From Christensenellaceae bacterium (lineage in GTDB: Bacteria; Bacillota; Clostridia; Christensenellales; Aristaeellaceae): a stretch of DNA of 24,000 nucleotides. The notes beneath the pieces were generated by a model that was given only the letters and a program-made list of their open reading frames with translations, was not told the origin of the DNA and did no database searches. The stretch covers positions 67,728 through 91,727 of the forward strand of contig JAHHSO010000003.1 in the NCBI GenBank assembly GCA_020025205.1, read 5' to 3'. Shown in pieces: positions 1-23,008 of the stretch. The stretch's first letter is position 1; each line of letters opens with the position of its first letter. A program made the translations under genes and the position numbers.

Positions 1-459
1 GGCACGCTCATGGAGATCCAGTTCATCCAGAAGCCAGCTTAGCTTGCTGCCGGAAAAATACGCATCCGGCACAAGACCTGTTGTCGCCTTGATATGCTTC
101 TCCAACCCCTCTTCCCGAAGCCGTGCAATGATCGGCGCTGTGCGGCGGCACTGCCAGACAATCGCATTATACAGCGGCCTGCCCGTCTTTCTGTCCCACA
201 GAAGCGTTGTCTCGCGCTGATTGGTGATGCCAATTGCAGCAATTGCCTCCAGCGGAATGCCGCTGATGCGCACCACTTCACGCAGTGCATCAATCTGTGT
301 ATTCAAAATCGCCGCCGGATCATGCTCAACCCAGCCCGGCTGAGGATAAATCTGCTCAAACTCGTAGCTTTTCATGGCAACAACGCGCGCTTTTTCATCG
401 AAAATGACAGCGCGTGAGCTGGTCGTTCCCTGATCCAGTGCAATGATATACGTATGCAC
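1..459 (-). CDS. glpK: Glycerol kinase, N-terminal 153 codons (rest lies beyond the window start)
   Basis: Absent from the ORF track because it has a GTG start and runs off the edge. My translation from 459 downward: (M)[51 protein letters not shown]...[33 protein letters not shown]. This carries FGGY/GlpK N-terminal signatures ([23 protein letters not shown]). GGAGG lies 7 nt upstream of the GTG. Confidence 0.9.
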
Positions 460-480
460 AGCTTTTCCTCCCTCTTATCC

Positions 481-512
481 GAGAAAACGCGCCGCCGGAA
501 CTCCGACAGCGC
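481..512 (-). terminator. Rho-independent terminator-like hairpin after the PQQ-propeller gene, 22 nt upstream of the glpK start
   Basis: The - strand reads GCGCUGUCGG-AGUU-CCGGCGGCGC (10 bp including two G.U pairs) followed by GUUUUCUC. Confidence 0.6.
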
Positions 513-522
513 GACAAGTATT

Positions 523-2781
523 TTATTTCAGTTCCACGAAGTAAAGCAGACCGCCGGTCGTGCCAACGACAATCTGATTGCCGTATGCAGCCGGAGAAGC
601 CTTGATCGGGCTTCCCAAATTCACAGTGCTGATCGTAACACCAGAGAAACCGTCCATCAAGCGAAGGGTTCCATTGTCATCACCCATAACGATGTAACTC
701 TTTCCGTCCGTCTGATACAGACCAATCGGGGACGATACGGATTCTACGTCAAGCGGCTGGTTCCATACCTCTGCGCCCGTCTTCTTATCCAAGGCGAACA
801 CAACAGCGCTGAGGTTGTTCTTGTCCAGCTCAAGACGGTTGACGTTGAAAACCACCAGATCGCTGATCTCGCCTTCGCCAATCAACGCAGAAGCCATCAG
901 GCCAGCATACATGCCTTCCTGGGCGGATTTGCTGGAATATTTTCCCTTCATTTCGGTCTGATATTCCCAGCGGATTTCGCCCGTGAGCGCATCCATCTTG
1001 ACAAGACGCACCTGATTGCTGCGCTCATTCTTGGCGATTGCAGTGCCCGTATACAGGCTGACGCTGCCATCTGCTTCGCACTCAATGGATGGCGTAGCAA
1101 TGACGCTGTCCCCCAGATCGACTGCCCAAACTGTCTTGAGCGTCGTCATGTCAACGCACTGAACCATACCCGCCATATCTCCAAAGTACGCATAATCGCC
1201 ATACGCTGCCGGGCTGCCAACAATTCCAGGCTTTCCGTTGCGGATATTGGTTTCATACGCATAGGCAGCCGCCTTTGGATCAATGGAAATCTCCGCGTTT
1301 TCCAGATCAAACTGGGTATTCATGTCTACCGTATAGAGCATTCCGTTCTGAGAAGTATACACGAGGGTATCAGAATCGGACTCTACCAGTGCCGAAGAAG
1401 TAATCTGGCTGTTTTTAGACTGTGCTTCCAGCTCCTTGCTGGTTTTAAATCCGATGAGCTTCTGATTAATCAAATTGTAGATACGCATGCCAATGACGCC
1501 TTCATAATCGGCAGCTTCGTCTCCTGTCTGACCAACATACAGAAGCGGATAGCCATATGGATTGACACTTGCAGTCACATCCATCGGCAGACCAATGTCA
1601 ATTGGCGGACGAGAAGGCGCCTGCGTATCCAAATCGTAGAAGTAAATTTTGCCGTCAGCAGAAGGAGCGATGACTTCCTTCATGGCTTTCGTATCGCGGG
1701 ACTCCGGATTGATGTTCATCATCTCGCGAATATTCTTATACCACTTCACAATCAGCGGCTGGCTGCCGTAACCGAAACCAGTATACTGATTATCCAGCTT
1801 CGTTGTACGGACTCCGCGAACCACGCTGAGGGTTTCATCCTGCACCTCAACCGTGCCATATGCCGCATTCTGACGCAGCGGACCGCCTCTGAATGTCAGA
1901 ACACCGCCCTGATCAGTATACTTTTCCGGATCACCCATGGAAACCTTTTCGCTTCCCGTCCATTCCGTCTTCTCGCCATCTGCAAGAACGTAACTGCCAG
2001 TAATCAGCGTTTCCGGCAAAGTTTCTTCAACTGCCGCGGCGCGTTCTGCGCGATAAGGAACCGGGGTCGGGCTGGGTGTCGGGGTTGGTACCGGCGTTGG
2101 GCTCGGAGTAGGCGTAGGAACCGGCGTTGGGCTTGGAGTCGGCGTGGGCACCGGCGTCGGACTCGGAGTCGGGCTTGGAGTCGGCGTGGGCACCGGACTC
2201 GGAGTCGGCACTTGTGTCGGCGTAGGCGTCGGCTTAGGTGTCGCTGTCGGAGACGGTGTCGGCACCGGCGTCGGCACATCTGTTGGTTTGGGCGTTGGGG
2301 TCGGCACCGGCGTTGGAACCAGAGTCGCTGTGGGCTCCGGCGTCGGTACAGCCGTTGGTGCAGCCGTCGGCGTTACAGTCGGAGCAGGCGTTGAAATTAT
2401 GCCAATCTGCCTGAAGAGTTCCTCACGCTCCTGCGGAAAAACTACCCAGCCCAAGACCAGAAGGATGATGATGAGAACAAGCACCGAAATGAGAACAGTC
2501 AGGCCGCCGCTGCCGCCTTTTTTGCGTTTTTTTCTGATCTGAGGCATTTCATCCTCGTCATCATTAAACTCGTCTTTCCAAAGCGTTTCCTCTTCAAATT
2601 CGGGAACAGCCTTTCTGACCTCGCTGTGCGGCGGTTCAGGATGAACCGGAGAAGCAGGCTGATTAAAATTCTCTGTTTGCTGAGATTGCTCGAACGCCTC
2701 AAAAGCCTTTTGTTGTGCCTCTGCACGTCTGCGCCTTTTAGGCATCGGCTCACCGTTTTTCTGTTCGTCCAAAGTGTACAC
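523..2781 (-). CDS. Single-pass membrane protein with a charged cytoplasmic N-terminus, a TM helix, a ~113 aa Pro/Thr-rich linker and an extracellular PQQ-like (BamB-type) beta-propeller
   Basis: 752 aa ORF. TM helix [24 protein letters not shown] linker at aa 130-242. The C-terminal ~500 aa carries repeated hydrophobic-G-(S/T/D)xDGxhY(a/v)hD units typical of PQQ-like propeller blades. The start is uncertain: GTG at 2781 abuts GAGGTG, while the in-frame TTG at 2772 has 6 nt spacing. Confidence 0.85.
2056..2394 (-). repeat. Pro/Thr(Ser/Val) low-complexity linker with tandem decapeptide repeats ([10 protein letters not shown] x3-4)
   Basis: The 30-nt units at 2060-2089, 2090-2119 and 2120-2149 encode the identical peptide [10 protein letters not shown] and differ mainly at codon third positions. 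The adjacent 2150-2179 unit is a near-copy. This tract also creates the spurious Arg-rich and Gly/Val-rich + strand ORFs. Confidence 0.9.
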
Positions 2782-2942: not shown

Positions 2943-3248
2943 ATGCTCGAATCCATTTCTCCCTATATGCTTTTAAAGCTCAGCAAACCGAAAGAGCCTG
3001 ACGTCATCGTCACTGAATACGACCGTTACAGCGCGATGCAGAACGCTTCAAATGTTTCCTCCCCAACTTTTCAGCCTCCCGCCGTCTCTGAACCAGAAGA
3101 ACCCGCCAAAGTCCCGGAGTCTCCCATGCCGCCCTTCTATCCGCCTCTCAAACGCACACATTATATCAAGGATATTGGCGCTCGCCATGAAACAGCGTTA
3201 AAGAGCGGTGTCCGATTTATTCAGCCCAGCCAGCGCCCTGATACATAA
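2943..3248 (+). CDS. Hypothetical small Pro-rich protein (101 aa)
   Basis: AAAGGAG lies 9 nt upstream of the ATG. I recognise no family. Its 3' end overlaps the convergent ORF 3221-3697 by 28 nt. Confidence 0.3.
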   Translation: MLESISPYMLLKLSKPKEPDVIVTEYDRYSAMQNASNVSSPTFQPPAVSEPEEPAKVPESPMPPFYPPLKRTHYIKDIGARHETALKSGVRFIQPSQRPDT

Positions 3249-3697
3249 CGCGCCGCAGGCATGCAGGGCGGCGGCGGCCACCTGCGCTCCGGCCATCCAC
3301 GTTCTTCCGTCTGCCTTTTTTTCTCTTCTGCCCGGTATATCGTCTTTTCTTGCTCCTGATTTTTTGTTTTGCCCGCCGGCCGCTCCGTCGGGCATTCTCT
3401 TTTTTCCATCTCAAAAGCTCTTTTTGCCGCTTCATCTGTATACAGACGAAGCACGCCGTTTTCCGTTACATATGCAGCGGCAATCTTTGTTCCGTCATCC
3501 GGATGTTCATTTTCTTCTGCCGTCCACGCACCTTCCCACACGGTCTTCCTGTTGTCGGCCCGAATAATCGTCATTCTTGCTTTATCCATTGCTCCCCCCT
3601 TAAATCGCACTACCCCCTGCCCCTGAATGAGATAGCCTTCCGGCTTCCCTGTAGCGCCTTTTAATACAAAACTCCTGCCCACGATAAACACCTCCAT
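3221..3697 (-). CDS. Hypothetical protein with a K/E/R-rich low-complexity C-terminal tail
   Basis: 158 aa ORF. The first ~100 aa look globular (GYLIQGQGVVRFKGG, VLRLYTDEAAKRAF). GTG at 3682 is the more likely start because the ATG at 3697 lies inside GGAGGTG, which is 6 nt from that GTG. I recognise no family. Confidence 0.5.
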   Translation of the reverse strand: MEVFIVGRSFVLKGATGKPEGYLIQGQGVVRFKGGAMDKARMTIIRADNRKTVWEGAWTAEENEHPDDGTKIAAAYVTENGVLRLYTDEAAKRAFEMEKRECPTERPAGKTKNQEQEKTIYRAEEKKRQTEERGWPERRWPPPPCMPAARYVSGRWLG

Positions 3698-10807: not shown

Positions 10808-11365
10808 TTACGCTTTCTTCTTAACCTGTTTCTTTTCAAAAAAGGCCATTGCACGGCCCACCATCAGAACAATCTTGCCGCTCTTCTCAATGGCAATGCC
10901 CTTTGCATACGCCTTGCCGCCGATCATAAATGCAGAAATAAACGCCGTCATTAAAACAGAGGCCAACGCACCTGGCACACCCAATGTCACAAGGGACAGC
11001 GCAATCACCGAACCAGCCGAACCGGAAACAATGCCGACAATATCACCTACGACATCGTTCAAGACACTTGAAACGCGCTCTGCTTTACGAATGAGACGCA
11101 GTGCCTGTTTAGCTCCCGTGATCCGCTTGGAAGCCATCGCAATAAATGGCTGATCTTCCGCAGAGGTAACAGCCGTTCCAATCATATCTGTGATAATACC
11201 CACAAGTACCAGCACAATCAGCGCCACCAGCGCCACAAAAAGACCAGCAGATTCAGTAAACACGCGGGTTAAAAGGGACATTGCCACTGACAGCGCAAAA
11301 GACAGACAGACAACCGTGATAACCCATCGCTGTTTTCCCTGCTTGGACTTTTCTTTTTTATTCAT
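10808..11365 (-). CDS. oapA: Small 4-TM membrane protein immediately downstream of the large RNA; candidate OLE-associated protein A
   Basis: 185 aa (~20 kDa), basic at both ends, with four hydrophobic helices (about aa 14-35, 41-62, 105-128, 131-150) and a DxxxD motif (D104-VVG-D108). The call rests on position (large RNA, this gene, then dxs) plus topology, not on a database match. Confidence 0.7.
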   Translation of the reverse strand: MNKKEKSKQGKQRWVITVVCLSFALSVAMSLLTRVFTESAGLFVALVALIVLVLVGIITDMIGTAVTSAEDQPFIAMASKRITGAKQALRLIRKAERVSSVLNDVVGDIVGIVSGSAGSVIALSLVTLGVPGALASVLMTAFISAFMIGGKAYAKGIAIEKSGKIVLMVGRAMAFFEKKQVKKKA

Positions 11366-11409
11366 GATCTTTCAGCGTCCTTTATGTCCGCAACTTTCTG
11401 ACAATTTCT

Positions 11410-11436
11410 AAAAAAGCCCACGTCCAAGCCGTGGGC
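11410..11436 (-). terminator. Intrinsic terminator-like hairpin at the 3' end of the RNA
   Basis: The - strand reads GCCCACG-GCUUGGA-CGUGGGC followed by UUUUUU. It ends 44 nt upstream of the oapA start. Confidence 0.75.
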
Positions 11437-12011
11437 AAACATTCAAAGGAAAGGTGGTAATACGACAAATAAACCTTGCGGCTTAGGTTCGGTAGGATTT
11501 CCCCACTCATTACTTCCTGTCGCCATAGAAGCGGTTTCCCTTGAAAACGAGTGCCGCGCCGTTTCCGAACGCGGGACCGAATTACCACTGAGTCCACACT
11601 GTAATCTCTGTCATATCCTCACGACAGTCTAGGAGCTTTCCTCGGCAGCCTCGGTTTCTTCCTAGCCTCTTTTGCAATCGTGGTTTCACACAGCGATCGC
11701 CCCGGTTTCCGTGAGCCTTTGGTCACCGTGCGTTGTTCCATGATCCGCCACAATCACTCAAGGCAGGCTACACTGCAGGCAGCTTTTGTACCACCATGCA
11801 GGTTTTCATGACGCAAAGCCGTCATGCCTCCACGAAAAATGGGTCGAACTCCGACATGCCATTGCCGGCCGCCCATAATTCTTACTCCCAGTGCCGACCC
11901 CCGACTGGGCGTCAGCAGCCGCCACCAGAAACTTCATCGATATGCCCTTTAACGGATTTTTAGCCCCGTCTTGAGAAGAAACTTTGCTGACTAGAATACT
12001 GCACCACCTGT
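11410..12011 (-). ncRNA. ole: ~600 nt highly structured non-coding RNA, called as OLE (ornate, large, extremophilic) RNA
   Basis: A 707 nt coding gap in an operon that is otherwise nearly gap-free. It has its own consensus promoter and a terminal hairpin with a U6 tract. The termini pair (AGGUGGU 12009-12003 with ACCACCU 11458-11452) and there are many internal helices (see findings). Size and position between ispA and a 4-TM protein plus dxs match what is published for OLE. The 5' end is estimated from the -10 box. Confidence 0.8.
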
Positions 12012-12017
12012 TTTTTA

Positions 12018-12046
12018 ATTATACCATAGCTGTCCGGCATTTTCAA
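12018..12046 (-). promoter_or_regulatory. Near-consensus sigma-A promoter driving the large RNA
   Basis: The - strand reads TTGAAA (12046-12041), a 17 nt spacer, then TATAAT (12023-12018). The -10 is preceded by TGg, an extended -10 element. Confidence 0.75.
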
Positions 12047-12072
12047 CAGCTTCTCAAAGAAATGAAAATCGA

Positions 12073-12519
12073 TCAGGAGAGCAGTATCCCCACAAAAATG
12101 CCCAGCAGTGCGCCAGCAAGCACCTGAATGGGCGTATGTCCAACAAGTTCTTTAAGTCTTTCCTCGCTCATGGTGAAGCCATTTCCGGCCAGCCCATCCA
12201 GCAGGTGGTTCAAAACTGCGGCATTCTGTCCGGTTGATCGGCGAACGCCCGCCGCATCATACATCACAATGCCCGCAAAACAAAATCCAAGTGCAAAAAT
12301 GGGGGACGAAAATCCTTCTTTAAATCCAATCGTCGTCACCATCGCACAAGCCAGCGCAGAATGCGAACTGGGCATACCGCCCGAACCAAACACCCGGGTC
12401 GAGTCAAAACGCCTGCTGATAGCAAACGTCAGCGCTACTTTCAGCCCCTGCGCAATTGCCCAGGCAAGAACTGCCGCCCGAATGACCTGATTGCTAAAGA
12501 TTTCTCGAAAAACCCACAC
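12073..12519 (-). CDS. Divergent PAP2 / DUF212 family membrane protein (acid phosphatase / vanadium-haloperoxidase-related)
   Basis: 148 aa, polytopic, with the family-typical FGSGGMPSSHSA motif and C-terminal GHTPIQVLAGALLG. Confidence 0.85.
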   Translation of the reverse strand: MWVFREIFSNQVIRAAVLAWAIAQGLKVALTFAISRRFDSTRVFGSGGMPSSHSALACAMVTTIGFKEGFSSPIFALGFCFAGIVMYDAAGVRRSTGQNAAVLNHLLDGLAGNGFTMSEERLKELVGHTPIQVLAGALLGIFVGILLS

Positions 12520-15707: not shown

Positions 15708-16655
15708 TCATCCTTCTCTGCGATAAGCTTCCGCTCCAAGAAGTGCCACACCTACCGCATTGTCACCAGACAGTTCCGGATGCGCAAAGCAAAGCCGGCA
15801 ATGAAGTCCGCGCTTTTTTGCACGCTCAAGCAGCATCCTTTTCAGCAGTGCAGACGATGCCACACCACCGGCAAGCAGAGCATGATGCACACCCGTCTGT
15901 TCCTGAGCTGCTTCAATCATCCTGATGATTGTGCGGCTCAAAAAATCAAACACTTCTGCGGCGATCTGTTCAGGCGGCATTTTCCCTTCTTCCAGCCATC
16001 GGACGATCTTATTCTCTGCCCCTGCCAGATTGCAGTTCACCCCTTTGACAGATACACCAATAAGCGCCTGTGCTTTTCCTTTCATCGCCAGCTTTTCAAG
16101 CTCCGGTCCTGCAGGAAACGGCATCTTCAACCGAACGCCCGTCCTGTCCACCAGCTGACCCGCATGCAGATCAAGACTGCCGCCCAGAAGCGTCAATTGA
16201 CCCGCATTGCACAAAAGCAGCTCAGTTGTGCCGCCGGAAAGATGAAGAGCCAGAAAAGGCGTACTTTCATCAATTCCAGAATCCAGCATCGCCGCACGAA
16301 CATGCCCTTCCTGATGACTGACAGGATAAAAAGGCACGCGCAACAATGTTGCAGCTGCGCGCGCCTGACTTTCTCCCGCACGAAACACGGGCATATATGA
16401 CTCTTCCACCGGCCGCGGGCGCACGCTTGCACACACTGCACAAATCTCCGCTTCCGGTGCTTCGCCTCTCACATTTTCAAGCATCTGCGGCAGATTTTTT
16501 ACATGCTGAAACAGTCCTTGCGACTGCATCAGTCCACGGCCTCCCTCCTGCACCGTCAAAAGACGGCGGGATGACGCAATCAGCTCTCCTTCTGGAGTCA
16601 CCAGCGCGCAAGAAGTCGTGTAGCAGCTTGTGTCAATTCCCAGAATCGCTCTCAT
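15708..16655 (-). CDS. TsaD/Kae1-like ASKHA-fold protein (peptidase M22 / glycoprotease family paralogue)
   Basis: 315 aa with GIDTSCYTTS, HQEGH (an HxxxH metal motif), LHLSGGTTELL, LAGGVASSALLK and LSGDNAVGVA. These are collinear with TsaD but divergent. Its start overlaps the nusB stop (ATGA). Confidence 0.8.
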   Translation of the reverse strand: MRAILGIDTSCYTTSCALVTPEGELIASSRRLLTVQEGGRGLMQSQGLFQHVKNLPQMLENVRGEAPEAEICAVCASVRPRPVEESYMPVFRAGESQARAAATLLRVPFYPVSHQEGHVRAAMLDSGIDESTPFLALHLSGGTTELLLCNAGQLTLLGGSLDLHAGQLVDRTGVRLKMPFPAGPELEKLAMKGKAQALIGVSVKGVNCNLAGAENKIVRWLEEGKMPPEQIAAEVFDFLSRTIIRMIEAAQEQTGVHHALLAGGVASSALLKRMLLERAKKRGLHCRLCFAHPELSGDNAVGVALLGAEAYRREG

Positions 16656-17169: not shown

Positions 17170-17415
17170 TCATTCATAACGATCCGTGTGGTCATTATGA
17201 AAAAAATTGACCAAATTGCGGATAAACGCCTTCTTGTCCTTCACCTTGCCAAAGAAACCGCCAATGAGGCAGAACACGCCAATCAGCAGCGCTTTGGCAA
17301 CGCCAATCGTCAGACAAAGCACTGCAAAGATCAACCCTAAAACGACCCCGAAAATCATGCAGGGTGTTGTCCCCGGGATGAACATTTCCTTTACAAACGT
17401 CTTCCAATCTTTCAT
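17170..17415 (-). CDS. Small integral membrane protein, DUF2273-like (third gene of Asp23 modules)
   Basis: 81 aa from the ATG at 17415 (MKDWKTFVKEMF...), with two hydrophobic helices. Its start overlaps the amaP stop (ATGA). The track start at 17457 is an in-frame extension inside amaP. Confidence 0.7.
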   Translation of the reverse strand: MKDWKTFVKEMFIPGTTPCMIFGVVLGLIFAVLCLTIGVAKALLIGVFCLIGGFFGKVKDKKAFIRNLVNFFHNDHTDRYE

Positions 17416-18191
17416 GCCTGTTCCTCCGGAAGTTCCTCTTTCTGTTCTTCGCTGCATACGTCAGAATCCTCTGCTGCTGCAGGTTCAGCGTCAGAAAGTT
17501 CAGCTTCGGAAACTGCGGTTTCAAGTTCATCAGCCTCAACTGCTGCTTCAACCGCCGTTTCCCCTTCTTTCGGTTCTTGCAGCTGATTATCTGTGGACAA
17601 GCCCAGAAAATCAGCCGGAATAGCATACGGGGACTTGGTTGTTTCTTCGTCAGAAGGAATGGTGCTGTCTACAAAAATGCGCACTTCCTGCACCATGACG
17701 CCCGAACAGGCTTCCAGATACTTCTTGATCTGCTTTTGAAGCGCCGAAATTGCCAGCGGCATACTGATGTCAGACTGAAGCGCGATGTGTACATCCACAC
17801 GAATACTCTCTTCGTCGCTGAACAAGGACGAATTCACGACTTTCAGTTCCGCATGTTCATCCAAGCACTTCTTCACAAGTGCATCCAGCGCCTTGAGAGA
17901 AATGCGAACCATGCCATTCTCATTGCGCTGAATCGCATAATTGCTGGAACGCTTTTTCCCCGCCGGCAAAGTCATGCCGATAAGCAGCAGGAAAAGCGCA
18001 GCAAACACAGCGCCAACAAGTACGATAATCGCTTTTGTCAGCAGGCTTGCCATATTGATCTGCGCAGCCGCCGCGGCAATTGTATCTACAGAAATCCGCC
18101 CCATCAGAAGCATCACCGAGCCCGCCGCGCCGCAAAGCGCCGCCAGCGCGCACAGCAGAATCAGTATTCTATCTCCAACAGGATGTTTCAC
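17412..18191 (-). CDS. amaP: Alkaline-shock-response membrane anchor protein AmaP-like, with a long acidic C-terminal tail
   Basis: 259 aa from a GTG start with GGAGG 9 nt upstream. It has two N-terminal TM helices and then an Asp23-like fold segment (VRISLKALDALVKKCL...IRVDVHIAL...VQEVRIFV). The last ~60 aa are rich in E, D and A. Confidence 0.75.
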   Translation of the reverse strand: MKHPVGDRILILLCALAALCGAAGSVMLLMGRISVDTIAAAAAQINMASLLTKAIIVLVGAVFAALFLLLIGMTLPAGKKRSSNYAIQRNENGMVRISLKALDALVKKCLDEHAELKVVNSSLFSDEESIRVDVHIALQSDISMPLAISALQKQIKKYLEACSGVMVQEVRIFVDSTIPSDEETTKSPYAIPADFLGLSTDNQLQEPKEGETAVEAAVEADELETAVSEAELSDAEPAAAEDSDVCSEEQKEELPEEQA

Positions 18192-18219
18192 AACGTATTT
18201 CCTCCTTCATGGCCTTTGA

Positions 18220-18735
18220 TTACTCTTCTGTCGCTTCCGTTTCCAGCTCGTCTTCCTTCTGGAGCTCGTTCTCTTCAATAATCTCAACCGTGCTCTCTTC
18301 CAGCGCGTGCTGTTCTTCCTCTGCTTCGATGCTCAGAGCCAGCTTCTGACTCTGCTGCAATTCTTCATTCTCTTTTTCAAAGCTGACGCCAACTACATGC
18401 AGATCCACTTTTTCCACATGCAGTCCCGTCATGGATTCAATGGACTTCCGGACGTTTTCCTGTGCATTGCGGCCAACTTTCTGAATTGGCATGCCGTAAT
18501 CCACTGTCACGCTGACATCAACACTGACATCTTTTCCATCCATCTCTACGCGCACGCCGCGGGGCGCTTTGTTCTTTGCAAGCAGGCCGCTGATGCTGCC
18601 CGCACCTGCAATGCCCGAAATGCCGTCCACCTCGTTGGTAGCCACACTGACAATGGTAGAAATGACCTCATTGGCGTATGTGATCTGACCGTTATCCTGA
18701 TCTCTTTCCATATCAATGGTCACATTTTCGTTCAT
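18220..18735 (-). CDS. asp23: Asp23/Gls24-family envelope stress protein
   Basis: 171 aa: GQITYANEVISTIVSVATNEVDGISGI...VRVEMDGKDVSVDVSVTVDYG...VEKVDLHVVGV, followed by an acidic tail. Confidence 0.9.
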   Translation of the reverse strand: MNENVTIDMERDQDNGQITYANEVISTIVSVATNEVDGISGIAGAGSISGLLAKNKAPRGVRVEMDGKDVSVDVSVTVDYGMPIQKVGRNAQENVRKSIESMTGLHVEKVDLHVVGVSFEKENEELQQSQKLALSIEAEEEQHALEESTVEIIEENELQKEDELETEATEE

Positions 18736-18765
18736 TTCAAAAACACCTCCCTATGGATATTCATT

Positions 18766-18794
18766 AGTATAGCAGATTTTTGTCTTTTACACAA
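18766..18794 (-). promoter_or_regulatory. Sigma-A-type promoter for asp23-amaP-DUF2273
   Basis: The - strand reads TTGTGT (18794-18789), a 17 nt spacer, then TATACT (18771-18766). GGGAGG lies 9 nt before the asp23 ATG. Confidence 0.55.
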
Positions 18795-18804
18795 TTCCAA
18801 ATGT

Positions 18805-19263
18805 TCATTTTTTTGCGAGAATGATTTTTATATCTTCCCCGGACACGCCAAGCAGTCCCGAAACCGCTCCCGTCATGCGCGTTCTTTTCTTTTCGCTGTC
18901 TGCATTTTTTTCTGTTGTCACAATCGTTACTCCCCCCTCTGCGCATAGGACGGATGTATTTTCAAATCCCATTTCACAAAGCATTTTTTCTGCCTGTTTC
19001 TCCATATCCAGCCGCTTTGCAATCTTCACTTTTTCAGCAAGCGCGCCGTCTTTTGTCTCTCTGGAAGCTGTCGGATCATTGATCACGCTGTCAAGAAGCT
19101 CAATCGCCTGATCCTCTTCTTCGTAAACAACCGTCACCGGTACGCTGACCGCTGTATCTGCCCGATATGCACCCGCATACCCGCATACTGCCAGCAATGC
19201 CAGCAGCGCCGCCCCGCAAACCATGTGAAAGACATTCTCCTTATTGACAATCTGCCCTTTCAT
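18805..19263 (-). CDS. spoIIIAH: Stage III sporulation protein AH
   Basis: Start taken at the ATG at 19263 (MKGQIVNKENV...), with GGAGGAG 7 nt upstream. One TM helix, then the SpoIIIAH-like C-terminus (MEKQAEKMLCEMGFENTSVLCAEGGVTIVT...VSGLLGVSGEDIKII). It is the last gene of the spoIIIA operon. Confidence 0.8.
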   Translation of the reverse strand: MKGQIVNKENVFHMVCGAALLALLAVCGYAGAYRADTAVSVPVTVVYEEEDQAIELLDSVINDPTASRETKDGALAEKVKIAKRLDMEKQAEKMLCEMGFENTSVLCAEGGVTIVTTEKNADSEKKRTRMTGAVSGLLGVSGEDIKIILAKK

Positions 19264-19280
19264 CAATTCTCTCCTCCTGC

Positions 19281-19625
19281 TCATTTTCCTGCTGCAACCA
19301 CGCTGACAGCTGACGATGGAAGTCCTAAAAGTGTACAAAGCGCCTGTGTCAGCTGGATATTGACCAGCGGATCATCGGCCCCCTGTGCCACAGCCACCGC
19401 CCCGCAGGGCACTTCTTCCTCTGCGCCGCCCCATGCGCCTGCTCTTTTTGCTGTCATCACCACAACATCCACCTTTCCCGCCCCTTCCATCTTGGAAAGC
19501 ACACGTCCGGCGCGTGCTTCCAGTTCCGTCCCTTCCTTTGGAAAAAAGAGAGCGCATGCCAGGAGCAATGCTGCAAACAACGCAACTGTCTGCGGTGTCA
19601 GCACCGCTCGAAGCCGTTCAAACAT
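19281..19625 (-). CDS. spoIIIAG: Stage III sporulation protein AG, unusually short (114 aa)
   Basis: AAGGAG lies 7 nt upstream of the ATG. An N-terminal TM helix (VALFAALLLACALFF) is followed by AG-type motifs: LSKMEGAGKVDVVVM ... GAVAVAQGADDPLVNIQLTQALCTLLGLPSSAVSV. It sits seventh in the operon. Confidence 0.7.
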   Translation of the reverse strand: MFERLRAVLTPQTVALFAALLLACALFFPKEGTELEARAGRVLSKMEGAGKVDVVVMTAKRAGAWGGAEEEVPCGAVAVAQGADDPLVNIQLTQALCTLLGLPSSAVSVVAAGK

Positions 19626-19863: not shown

Positions 19864-21003
19864 CTATCTGAGCATTACCGTTAAATTGCCCACCAGAAGC
19901 ACCTGAACAATCAGCAGAAAATACATCGTTCCCACGCAGAGCATTGTGATGAAAAACAACACAATCGTCCTGGAAAAATCACCGATCGCACCAATGACCT
20001 CCGCATCTGCCACCGGCTCCAGAAGTGCCGCGCTGAGCTTCAAAATGAACACGACAGCAAGCGTGCGCATCATCGGCCCCAGAAGCACCGCTGCCAGCAC
20101 GAGCACCGCTGCTACACCCAACGCATTTTTGACAATCAGCGTGCATCCAACCAGCGTGTCCATCGTATCTGAAAACATGCCGCCGACAACCGGCACAAAG
20201 TTGTCCACCGCATATTTTGCCGCGCGAATCGCCACCCCATCCACAGATGCCCGAACGACTCCCTGAAGCGACATCGCGCCAAGAAATACTGTAAAGCTTA
20301 TACCCAGCAGCCAGCAGACAGCGCTGCGCAGCAGCTGCGCCATGCGCGTCAAATGCGCCCTGTCCGACAGGTGATTCACCGTCGTCACTGCACAGGTACA
20401 CATCACCAGACGCAAAATCACCTCCCGCGCCAGAAACACCATGCTGCCCGATGCCGCCGCAACCATCGGATGAAGAAACACAGAAGAAGCGCTTCCCCCA
20501 AGAGCCGTTAAAAGCGTCAGAAGCATGGGCAGCATCTGTTCCATTCGTTGTGTCATGCTCATGATGGTTTTCCTTGCGTGTTCCAGTTCGCCCATCACAA
20601 GGAGAACAACAGGAGTTATAATCAGAACAAAGCATGCACTCCTGCTCAGCGCTGTCAGCGCATCTTTCTGTGCCGCAAGCGTATGTGCCAGCAGGCTGGA
20701 CAAGAGCACCGGGAGCATGATGGCAAGCATCACCCTGCCCGTCCCGTTTAATGCATCAAAAAAAGCCCTGAACACAGCGGTGAGTGCGTCCTCCGGCGTC
20801 ATTGTCTCCCCGGATGCAATCGCGCGCACAGTCTCCTTCACCGATCGTCCGCCAATTTCGATGCCTTCCATCGGCGCAAAATCCAATCCATCCAGAACCT
20901 CGCTGGTCGCCTTGTCCATTTTTTCCCGTGTGTCTTCATCTGCCTTGACAGGAACAACAAAAGCCAGCATCACAAGAAAAATCAAGAGCAGACAACGCTT
21001 CAT
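19864..21003 (-). CDS. spoIIIAE: Stage III sporulation protein AE
   Basis: 379 aa with a signal peptide and a polytopic membrane domain. It sits fifth in the operon and overlaps spoIIIAD by ATGA. Confidence 0.9.
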   Translation of the reverse strand: MKRCLLLIFLVMLAFVVPVKADEDTREKMDKATSEVLDGLDFAPMEGIEIGGRSVKETVRAIASGETMTPEDALTAVFRAFFDALNGTGRVMLAIMLPVLLSSLLAHTLAAQKDALTALSRSACFVLIITPVVLLVMGELEHARKTIMSMTQRMEQMLPMLLTLLTALGGSASSVFLHPMVAAASGSMVFLAREVILRLVMCTCAVTTVNHLSDRAHLTRMAQLLRSAVCWLLGISFTVFLGAMSLQGVVRASVDGVAIRAAKYAVDNFVPVVGGMFSDTMDTLVGCTLIVKNALGVAAVLVLAAVLLGPMMRTLAVVFILKLSAALLEPVADAEVIGAIGDFSRTIVLFFITMLCVGTMYFLLIVQVLLVGNLTVMLR

Positions 21004-21386
21004 TTCAGCGCCTCCACAGCCATCTGCGTCAGCGATAGAAAGATGGGCATTGCCACGCCAAGCAGCGCCAGCCGCCCGCAGAATTCTGTTCGCCGTGCAA
21101 TGGATGGTGCATCCATATCACGACAAATTTGTGAAGCCAGCTGTGTCACAAGGACAATCCCCATCGCGCGAAGCATCACCTTCATGTACTGTTCGTCCAT
21201 CGCAAGGGATTCAAAAAAACGTTGAATCTGTGCAACATATTCACTTACAGGCTTCAAAAGCATGCCCACCACAAGAATACTGAATGCTGCACACAAAAGC
21301 GCTGCCGCCTGAGGATTCACCTGTCTGAGCACCATCACCATCGCCGCCGCCAGCAGGCACAGGCCGCAAAGCTGCACAAGCGTCAT
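21000..21386 (-). CDS. spoIIIAD: Stage III sporulation protein AD
   Basis: 128 aa, 4 TM, collinear with B. subtilis SpoIIIAD as I recall it (...MGIVLVTQLASQICRDMD...GRLALLGVAMPIF). Confidence 0.9.
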   Translation of the reverse strand: MTLVQLCGLCLLAAAMVMVLRQVNPQAAALLCAAFSILVVGMLLKPVSEYVAQIQRFFESLAMDEQYMKVMLRAMGIVLVTQLASQICRDMDAPSIARRTEFCGRLALLGVAMPIFLSLTQMAVEALK

Positions 21387-21401
21387 TTTTTCTGCCCCCT
21401 G

Positions 21402-21605
21402 TCAGTAAAGACCAAATATGCTCTTTACATTATTGAGCAGCTGGGCAACCAGATCAATCACAAGAAAAAGCACTACCACCAGGCCCGCAACGGATGCCAA
21501 TACTGCAATATCATCCCTTCCAGCCTTTTGAAGCACCTGATTGACCGCAAAAACCAATATGCCAACGCCTGCAATCTGAAACAAGAGGTCGATGTTCATG
21601 CCCAT
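21402..21605 (-). CDS. spoIIIAC: Stage III sporulation protein AC
   Basis: 67 aa: MGMNIDLLFQIAGVGILV..., close to the SpoIIIAC N-terminus (MGVDVNVIFQIAGVGI). The start is ambiguous: the first ATG abuts AAGGAGG, whereas the ATG at 21599 has 6 nt spacing. Confidence 0.9.
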   Translation of the reverse strand: MGMNIDLLFQIAGVGILVFAVNQVLQKAGRDDIAVLASVAGLVVVLFLVIDLVAQLLNNVKSIFGLY

Positions 21606-21612
21606 CCTCCTT

Positions 21613-22131
21613 TTAAATCAGCAAAAGAAATATTGCCGCGCCTCCGGTTAATCCCAGCGCACGAATCAGCTGTGCACGTCTTCCAGACTCCCTTCGGAGC
21701 GTCTCCTCCCTTGCACGAAGTCGCTCATCCGCTGCATCAATCAGCCGAAGCTGCTCGTCCAGCCCTGTATGACCCAAATCAGAAAGAACACACTCAAACG
21801 CCTGCCGGTCTTCCGCGCTCAGAATACCATAGCCAGCTGTTCCCGCGCTCTCTCCCGAAAAAACCGTAACCAATTGCGGGGTGCTGCTCACCGCCATTCG
21901 ATGGGCGCAAATATGCAGAAGTTTCGTCAATTCGCGTTCTTCACGCGTTGCGCTCAAATCCATTTTTTCCAGAAGTTCAATCAGGCTTGGCCGCTCATAG
22001 CGAATAGCATTGTAAAACCGGACAAGGCAGCGGCGCATCGCCTGAATCCATCTCACGCGCCGCACCTCACCATCCGCAATGAGAAATCCCATTGTGCTCA
22101 CAATCACCATTGCCACAATTGCATTTTCCAT
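21613..22131 (-). CDS. spoIIIAB: Stage III sporulation protein AB
   Basis: Start reassigned to the ATG at 22131 (MENAIVAMVIV...), with GAGGAGG 6 nt upstream. This gives 172 aa with TM helices at the N- and C-termini, as in SpoIIIAB. Confidence 0.85.
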   Translation of the reverse strand: MENAIVAMVIVSTMGFLIADGEVRRVRWIQAMRRCLVRFYNAIRYERPSLIELLEKMDLSATREERELTKLLHICAHRMAVSSTPQLVTVFSGESAGTAGYGILSAEDRQAFECVLSDLGHTGLDEQLRLIDAADERLRAREETLRRESGRRAQLIRALGLTGGAAIFLLLI

Positions 22132-23008
22132 GCTCCGCCTCCTCATCAAGCAGCTGCCCATCTGCATCATACGCCCGATTCAAACATCCATGATGCCCAA
22201 GAAATACATATCCGTCAAATGTTCCTGCGTCAAGCAGGGCCTTTAAAACAGGCCGATTTTCAACATCCTGCCAGCACTCCGCATGTGCTGAGGCCAGCAG
22301 CCTTGTTCCGCATCGCGCCGCGTCCTCAAGCGCTTTCACATCCGCTTCGTCACCCACCTCGTCTGTGACAATGACTTGCGGCCCCATAGCGCGCAGCAGC
22401 ATCTGTACAGCTTCTGCTTTTCCAGCCCCTTGCATCACGTCTATCTTTTTGCCGGGTTTTATGCCAGAAAATAACTCTTCGCGTTCATCTGCCACTGCCA
22501 CATGCAGCCCGCATTCATCCGACAGCCATCGTGCCGCGTCCCTAAGCACAGTTGTCTTGCCGCATCCCGGCGGGCCAAGAATCAAAAGCCTTTTTCTTTT
22601 TTTAATATATGCTCTGATAGGCAGGCTGGCCCCTGGAATGTCCTTTGACATACGTATACATACCGATGTTACATCGCGCAAGCGCTTTCTTCCGTCTTCT
22701 GTATGAATCAGTTTCCCGCAGACCCCGGCACGATGTCCTCCAGGCAGCGGGATGTACCCCTGCGCCATCTGCGTTTCAAATGCATACCGCGCCAAGCCGC
22801 ACAGCACCGTCACAAGCGCATCCATCTGCGTGCCGTCCAATGCGATCGGCATATCTAACTTCCCATCGGCAAACACAAATTCCACAGGCAGGTCACGCCT
22901 GAAGCGCATTTCCTCCAATGTGCTCAGCTGTTTTGCTGACAGCCCGTGAACAAGCATCGATACCTCCGGCGTCAGCTTTAAATCCTCCGCAAATCCGATT
23001 GCTATCAC
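22067..23008 (-). CDS. spoIIIAA: Stage III sporulation protein AA (AAA+/secretion-ATPase-like)
   Basis: Contains LEEMRFRRDLP, Walker A (ILGPPGCGKTT) and Walker B (VIVTDEVG). The start is uncertain: GTG at 23008 has a weak RBS, while the ATG at 22957 has GGAGG 5 nt upstream. The 3' end overlaps spoIIIAB by 65 nt. Confidence 0.9.
   Translation of the reverse strand: MIAIGFAEDLKLTPEVSMLVHGLSAKQLSTLEEMRFRRDLPVEFVFADGKLDMPIALDGTQMDALVTVLCGLARYAFETQMAQGYIPLPGGHRAGVCGKLIHTEDGRKRLRDVTSVCIRMSKDIPGASLPIRAYIKKRKRLLILGPPGCGKTTVLRDAARWLSDECGLHVAVADEREELFSGIKPGKKIDVMQGAGKAEAVQMLLRAMGPQVIVTDEVGDEADVKALEDAARCGTRLLASAHAECWQDVENRPVLKALLDAGTFDGYVFLGHHGCLNRAYDADGQLLDEEAEHGKCNCGNGDCEHNGISHCGW

Follow-up and report, generated by a model that had tools for sequence, protein, structure and literature searches.

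The stretch of DNA analysed here, further referred to as the window, comprises 24,000 nucleotides (nt) of contig JAHHSO010000003.1 (positions 67,728 to 91,727, forward strand) from a Christensenellaceae bacterium. On its minus strand a non-coding gap of 707 nt (11366–12072) separates the DUF212 gene (12073–12519) from an open reading frame (ORF) of 185 aa (10808–11365). This gap holds a complete and typical gene for an OLE RNA, a well-known membrane-associated noncoding RNA of bacteria about 600 nt long; it is not a new kind of element, and nothing in it falls outside the known family. We are highly confident in the reading as a whole, namely that this is an ordinary full-length ole gene of a spore-forming Bacillota with the putative role of OLE RNAs in a ribonucleoprotein (RNP) particle. 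The OLE family was described in 2006 and has been studied in depth since. A first-pass annotation, made from the raw sequence of the window, had recognised the OLE RNA by its size, its synteny and a few helices, and all sequence strings quoted there are found at their coordinates.

Identification of the OLE RNA

The whole window was scanned against the covariance models of Rfam 15. The OLE family (RF01071) was the only Rfam family above threshold anywhere in the window. Its match at 12023–11438 of the minus strand scored 478.2 bits, compared to the gathering score of 50 (E 1.2e-137), and spanned model positions 1–616 of 616 without truncation. A covariance-model search had been proposed in the first-pass annotation as a check of the OLE identity, and this full-length match bears the identity out. 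When the RF01071 consensus structure was projected on the window, 146 of the 150 model pairs were present, and 133 of these 146 were canonical. The predicted 614-nt transcript has a folding energy of −228 kcal/mol, compared to −203 ± 8 kcal/mol for dinucleotide shuffles (z = −2.9).

Covariation in the OLE family

Relatives were collected by searching contigs, one genome per species, for the conserved OLE core motif, which gave a list of at least 120 loci. A search with the window RNA using nhmmer found a real OLE in 109 of 120 loci listed. The window copy and 78 full-length OLE copies were then aligned (79 sequences); all family counts in this study refer to the listed loci. Covariation was counted on the MAFFT alignment, where the variable P7 and the distal part of P9 are under-aligned, with 35–62% of cells pairing.

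For the Rfam structure supplemented with the terminal helix, 87.3% of cells pair, compared to 71.5% for shuffles, and compensatory change on both sides is seen in 123 of 153 pairs. The covariation score equals 0.479 versus 0.200 for shuffles, with none of 500 shuffles scoring as high. In slid controls, with the partners moved by 1–3 columns, the score was 0.11–0.14.

Four helices are absent from the Rfam structure line. One of them, P1, closes the whole RNA and coincides with the pairing of the ends (AGGUGGU with ACCACCU) that had been proposed in the first-pass annotation; compensatory change is seen in six of its seven pairs, with 90.8% of cells paired. The other three (P2, P3.1 and P3) were derived from the window sequence and subjected to the same covariation test. 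Together they have 93.5% of cells paired and compensatory change in 15 of 21 pairs, and their score is 0.522 versus 0.232 for shuffles. Considered separately, P2 pairs in 100% of cells, with the rare double changes CGGU/ACCG and UGUU/AACA, and P3.1 with P3 has 12 of 13 pairs compensatory (alignment columns 39–55 and 522–541; window positions 11989–11974 and 11662–11646). The helices of the 3' domain pair in 84–99.6% of cells and have compensatory change in nearly every pair. Hence the covariation among relatives that had been called for strongly supports both the Rfam fold and the helices P1, P2, P3.1 and P3, the observed values lying above those of all shuffled and slid controls.

The 5' strand of P3/P3.1 is 16 nt long in the window, as it is in 62 of the 79 OLEs (range 14–17 nt). 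Lengths vary widely elsewhere in the molecule, from 11 to 68 nt for P7 and from 54 to 114 nt for P9. The P3/P3.1 helix has been proposed to span the membrane (PMC12265935). A near-fixed length combined with a covarying sequence fits a helix whose length is critical, such as this proposed membrane-spanning stem.

Six of the nine helices quoted in the first-pass annotation were recovered, that is, P1, two P6 helices, P7, P13 and the terminator stem. The other three (CCCAGU/ACUGGG, CUAGGA/UCCUAG and CUGUCGU/AUGACAG) were not: their joint score of 0.107 is close to that of shuffles (0.106), and 232 of 500 shuffles scored as high. They represent chance complementarity and compete with the well-supported pairings of P5, P2/P3 and P10, to which their bases belong, respectively. 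In P5, GCCCA is the invariant loop and CUGGGAG the 3' strand. The 3' strand of P3 opens with AGGA, and the partner of CCUAG in P2 is the 5' CUAG. In the long-range helix P10, AUGACAG serves as the 5' strand and is paired with UUUGUCGUAU near the 3' end.

The features of the locus are listed in Table 1. The name P4a was assigned from the text of PMC9723947, given that the J4a/5 junction comes next.

Table 1. Coordinates of the ole promoter, the OLE RNA with its helices, the terminator and the oapA gene in the window
Feature	Coordinates	Strand	Description
ole promoter, sigma-A type (predicted)	12018–12046	−	−35 box TTGAAA (12046–12041), 17-nt spacer, extended −10 box TGgTATAAT (12026–12018)
OLE RNA	11438–12023	−	RF01071 match; structured core from P1 5' (12009) to P1 3' (11452)
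P1, terminal helix, closes the whole RNA	11452–12009	−	AGGUGGU (12009–12003) / ACCACCU (11458–11452)
P2	11625–12001	−	CAGU (12001–11998) and CUAG (11994–11991) with CUAG-ACUG (11632–11625)
P3.1	11646–11989	−	CAGC (11989–11986) / GCUG (11649–11646)
P3	within 11646–11989	−	GUUUCUUCU (11982–11974) / GGAAGAAAC (11662–11654)
P4a hairpin	11951–11970	−	GACGGGG-CUAAAAAU-CCGUU; 98.1% of cells pair
P5 hairpin and kink-turn core	11880–11940	−	hairpin 11931–11885; UCGAUGAAG (11940–11932) 5', GUAAGA (11885–11880) 3'
P6	11834–11881	−	contains AUGGG/CCCAU and CCGGCA/UGUCGG; 87.9% and 98.7% of cells pair
P7, short hairpin	11807–11826	−	CAUGACG-GCUUUG-CGUCAUG; 27 model positions replaced by 3 nt
P8 hairpin	11773–11801	−	RF01071 match and covariation
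P9, long arm	11665–11764	−	tip AAAGGCUCA, GGCU at 11717–11714
3' domain (domain 2)	11459–11617	−	long-range GAUAUGACAGA/UUUGUCGUAUU, UGUGG/CCGCA, P12.2 UUCGGU/ACCGAA
P13	11554–11574	−	GAAA tetraloop and bulged U
P14/P14.1	11504–11553	−	GCGA loop (11523–11520), second GNRA loop
Intrinsic terminator (predicted)	11410–11436	−	GCCCACG-GCUUGGA-CGUGGGC, then U6; −13.2 kcal/mol
oapA	10808–11365	−	185-aa membrane protein, directly downstream of ole

Promoter, terminator and predicted transcript

Both the promoter and the terminator proposed for the RNA in the first-pass annotation were recovered independently. In the consensus scan, TTGAAA-17-TATAAT matched at 11 of 12 positions, and a TG lies two bases ahead of the −10 box. 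The terminator scan returned a stem of seven pairs, six of them G-C (11436–11416), followed by T6 ending at 11410. The −10 box and P1 are separated by 8 nt, and therefore the transcription start is predicted at approximately 12012–12010, that is, 1–3 nt before P1. Taken together, the start and the terminator delimit a predicted discrete transcript of approximately 600 nt, from about 12011 to 11410. A transcript of this length with its own promoter, as suggested previously for the window, agrees with the experiments on Halalkalibacterium (Bacillus) halodurans, where OLE expression increases by a factor of more than 100 with the proximal promoter and the 5' ends lie close to where P1 begins (PMC3413148).

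A promoter-like site, usually with an extended −10 box (TGnTATAAT), ends at most 25 nt from P1 in 59 of 77 OLE loci (77%), compared to the background of 2.6% in random windows of the same loci. Therefore a dedicated promoter is a family trait. Under a lenient scan, terminator-like sites were found within 150 nt after OLE in 33 of 78 loci versus a background of 11.6%; since many of them lie inside oapA, we claim a strong terminator directly after OLE for a minority of loci. Of the 78 other loci, no more than about a dozen have a terminator immediately after OLE that is comparable in strength to that of the window. The closest genome among the matches listed, a Clostridiales metagenome-assembled genome (MAG; locus L095), has the same terminator stem sequence approximately 100 nt further downstream.

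The same arrangement may be read differently, the RNA being a cis-acting leader (5' untranslated region) that controls oapA-dxs and the terminator being the expression platform of an attenuation mechanism. Indeed, oapA-dxs come directly after ole and share its strand, the terminator stands between them with no promoter-like site after it, and the alternative pairing CUGUCGU/AUGACAG would compete with P10. We nevertheless consider a leader very unlikely, because the terminator is situated outside the conserved RNA, its strong form being found in the dozen or so loci mentioned above, and because no alternative pairing covaries. Besides, in some of the listed loci OLE has oapA after it without dxs, and the H. 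halodurans OLE is a single, very stable and abundant species acting with the OapA protein (PMC3413148).

Predicted protein-binding elements and the oapA gene

The reading of the gap as an ordinary ole gene is further supported by the elements that bind proteins in other OLE RNAs. Binding of OapB needs the GNRA tetraloop of P13, a single bulged nucleotide on its 5' side and the adjoining helix P12.2 (PMC7936274). The predicted OapB site is intact in the window and consists of CCGCG-U-UCG-GAAA-CGGCGCGG (11574–11554) and P12.2, for which 99.6% of the family's cells are paired. The target of OapC (YbxF) is a kink-turn that arises from the junctions on either side of P5 and in which one C-G pair is essential (PMC9723947). 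The predicted core of this kink-turn is intact as well: UCGAUGAAG is its commonest form, present in 68 of 79 OLEs. The window has the C-G pair, as do 77 of the 79 OLEs in the family; next to it the window has U-A, the form seen in 23 of the 79, and U-G is the form in 49.

For OapA, partial sites have been placed at palindromes within P2 and P4a or close by, their sequence not being stated there (PMC12265935). We infer that the invariant CUAG/CUAG pairing in P2 corresponds to the mapped OapA palindrome and thus is a candidate OapA site.

The protein encoded directly downstream of ole has no match in Pfam or NCBIfam at default thresholds; its similarity to CNNM (PF01595) is weak and below threshold (E 0.15). 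Weak CNNM similarity is likewise described for OapA in the literature (PMC11332333, PMC12265935). In 92 of 109 loci, Bacillaceae included, the gene next to the 3' end of OLE encodes a homologue of this protein. In the alignment of 11 OLE-adjacent proteins, from the window and ten genomes, the residues D104, V105, G107 and D108 are invariant; in the window protein they form the DxxxD motif D104-V-V-G-D108. DxxxD is the distinctive motif of OapA (PMC11332333), other hallmarks of which, among them some four transmembrane helices and a basic cluster on the cytoplasmic side, are given in the same paper and in PMC12265935. Inspection of the window protein by eye revealed four hydrophobic segments and a basic cluster around residues 79–97 with a KRITGAKQALRLIRKAER stretch. 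In the absence of a profile match, the gene at 10808–11365 is assigned as oapA from its sequence motif and position, because it combines synteny with OLE and the DxxxD motif.

Closest relative and lineage-specific features

The proteins flanking ole in the window and in L095 are 54–83% identical, and the RNA cores are 91.2% identical. Out of 49 differences between the two RNAs, 37 fall at paired positions, many of them being double compensatory changes. Since the differences occur mostly in stems and are largely compensatory, and since the identity of the RNA exceeds that of the proteins, the structure is under selection in the window lineage too.

Several features distinguish the window copy. 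The P7 region is 20 nt long, compared to the family median of 46 nt. The tip of P9 is GGCU (11714–11717) in both the window and L095, whereas most OLEs with a full P9 have a covarying Watson–Crick palindrome at this place (GGCC, GGGCCC, GGAUCC, GGCGCC, GAGCUC); GGCU pairs with itself only via two G-U wobbles. In the model alignment, the distal P9 of the window contains six non-canonical pairs. The palindromic tip is not universal, and the distal P9 is absent in 13 of 79 OLEs.

Further, ispA and ole are separated by an inserted gene for a DUF212 (divergent PAP2) membrane protein. The same insertion is observed in 13 other listed loci from several genera (L005, L009, L038, L043, L049, L059, L064, L068, L080, L083, L095, L110 and L115). 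Our literature search yielded no published link between DUF212 and OLE. It is unlikely, though less so than the alternatives considered in this study, that the window and the MAG W0P39.006 carry a mild variant of the OLE particle, as suggested by the GGCU tip, the reduced P7, the insulating terminator and the DUF212 insertion.

The shortened P7, the P9 tip degraded to GGCU and the six non-canonical distal P9 pairs might alternatively be taken as signs of decay, the window copy being a non-functional relic of an OLE. We regard such a relic as even less probable than a leader, because the full-length score of 478 bits ranks with the highest that can be reached, because the mapped protein-binding elements, the promoter and oapA are all intact, and because the differences from L095 are concentrated in stems and largely compensatory. 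Moreover, P7 and P8 vary between working OLEs, being absent or dispensable in some of them (PMC12265935).

Gene neighbourhood

The gene order around ole is nusB, TsaD-like, folD, xseA, xseB, ispA, DUF212, ole, oapA, dxs, tlyA, nadK, argR, recN, in agreement with the synteny noted in the first-pass annotation (nusB-folD-xseAB-ispA...oapA-dxs-tlyA-nadK-argR-recN). The remaining junctions between nusB and recN do not exceed approximately 18 nt, or the genes overlap, which makes the 707-nt gap stand out as had been described. The nusB-folD-xseAB-ispA / dxs-tlyA-nadK-argR-recN order also recurs around OLE in other listed genomes.

Upstream of nusB, at 17195–19338 and 19864–23008 of the minus strand, there are genes of the spoIIIA operon (AA, AC/AD, AE, AH) as well as Asp23-like and AmaP-like genes. 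Judging by these genes, the genomic context is that of a spore-former. OLE RNAs are known from anaerobic or extremophilic Bacillota; the window host is a Clostridia-like member of Bacillota, the closest genome listed being a Clostridiales MAG.

Two ORFs lie inside the ole interval, of 71 aa (11382–11597, minus strand) and 76 aa (11733–11963, plus strand), and the least credible explanation of all is that one of them encodes a small protein, given that Pfam gave no match for either of them at E values up to 5, that only 2 and 8 of 78 relatives, respectively, keep the frame open from the homologous position, and that the substitution pattern is compensatory for base pairs; this agrees with the earlier view that the gap holds no plausible coding ORF.

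Two listed loci (L023 and L049) belong to MAGs labelled Desulfovibrionaceae and Deltaproteobacteria. Each has a full-length OLE and the xseA-xseB-ispA-ole-oapA-dxs synteny. Mis-binning or mislabelling is more likely here than an OLE outside Bacillota.

Between nusB and folD, a TsaD/Kae1-like protein of 315 aa is encoded at 15708–16655 of the minus strand. It scores 127 bits versus the TsaD equivalog cut-off of 296, and since this is far under the cut-off, the protein is probably a divergent paralogue and not TsaD itself. At the other end of the window, two long ORFs overlap on opposite strands, 523–2781 (minus strand, 752 aa) and 454–2394 (plus strand, 646 aa). The former has C-terminal PQQ / beta-propeller repeats, and the latter, which has no family matches, is probably spurious. 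Family matches were also absent for the 143-aa ORF at 17195–17626 and the 158-aa ORF at 3221–3697.

Comparison with known systems

With the ole gene of H. halodurans the window copy shares its length, the helices P1–P15, the conserved junction sequences and the proximal promoter before P1. In both, oapA is the next gene after ole within the nusB...recN neighbourhood, and the OapB site and the kink-turn for OapC are shared too. The differences are confined to details of the lineage: P7 is short, P9 has a GGCU tip, ispA and ole are separated by the DUF212 gene, and a strong terminator follows ole before oapA begins. The hosts differ too: H. halodurans is an alkaliphilic Bacillus, whereas the window host is Clostridia-like and uncultured.

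The OLE RNAs of Clostridium acetobutylicum and C. botulinum, resolved as homodimers by cryo-electron microscopy (PMC12286853), belong to the same family and have the domain-1 helices P3–P9. A Clostridium OLE structure, PDB 9LCR, is cited in PMC12265935. The window RNA shares with the Clostridium structures the 16-nt 5' strand of P3/P3.1 and the kink-turn, which is pre-formed in them. The two RNAs of such a dimer are held together at their P9 tips by a symmetric kissing loop; the tip of the window RNA, as far as can be read from its sequence, would pair with itself via two G-U wobbles. GOLLD, ROOL, the raiA motif and SRP RNA are likewise large structured noncoding RNAs, with no sequence or structure relationship to OLE. 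SRP RNA, like OLE, meets the membrane as a ribonucleoprotein (PMC3413148).

Presumed function

By analogy with the OLE RNAs of H. halodurans and Clostridium, the window RNA would be abundant and very stable (PMC3413148) and would form a homodimer (PMC12286853). OapA, a CNNM-like membrane protein with four helices, would tether the RNA to the membrane, contacting it at partial sites in the palindromes in or near P2 and P4a. OapB would bind the P12.2/P13 site made of the GNRA loop and the bulge, and OapC would bind the kink-turn adjoining P5 (PMC7936274, PMC9723947). The resulting RNP would aid tolerance of short-chain alcohols, cold, excess Mg2+ and poor carbon sources (PMC3413148, PMC10898510). 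On our reading of PMC11332333 and PMC12265935, the RNA would most likely be the regulatory or sensing partner of OapA in divalent-ion transport of the CNNM/MpfA type and in stress signalling, standing in for the CBS and CorC domains that OapA lacks.

Several points weigh against the reading of the locus as an ordinary ole gene with this role. The mechanistic part is carried over from other species, and expression of ole in the source organism is a prediction. The genes oapB (ybzG) and oapC (ybxF) are not found in the 24-kb window; neither is expected in the ole neighbourhood (PMC9723947). The consensus scan found no promoter-like site after the terminator in the ole–oapA region (11366–11436). 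With a terminator this strong and no promoter recognised beyond it, oapA-dxs are probably transcribed by read-through past the ole terminator, a layout which is in the minority. Finally, the tip of P9 is the kissing-loop site of the dimer (PMC12265935), and the dimer contact through P9 may be weaker in the window RNA, because its GGCU tip is not a Watson–Crick palindrome and its distal P9 contains the six non-canonical pairs.

Significance

The window RNA is a correctly identified, typical member of a known family and is already known in kind. As a routine and easily annotated OLE, it has little weight for discovery. The family counts obtained here, that is, the promoter before P1 in 77% of loci, the almost fixed length of P3/P3.1 with its covarying sequence and the covarying palindrome of P9, bear on the hypotheses of a dimeric and possibly membrane-spanning OLE; they extend the published OLE observations and do not overturn them. 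A link between OLE and isoprenoid genes has long been noted. If it were true that DUF212 is a polyprenyl-phosphate phosphatase working with the OLE RNP, its gene next to ole would provide a concrete clue to this link.

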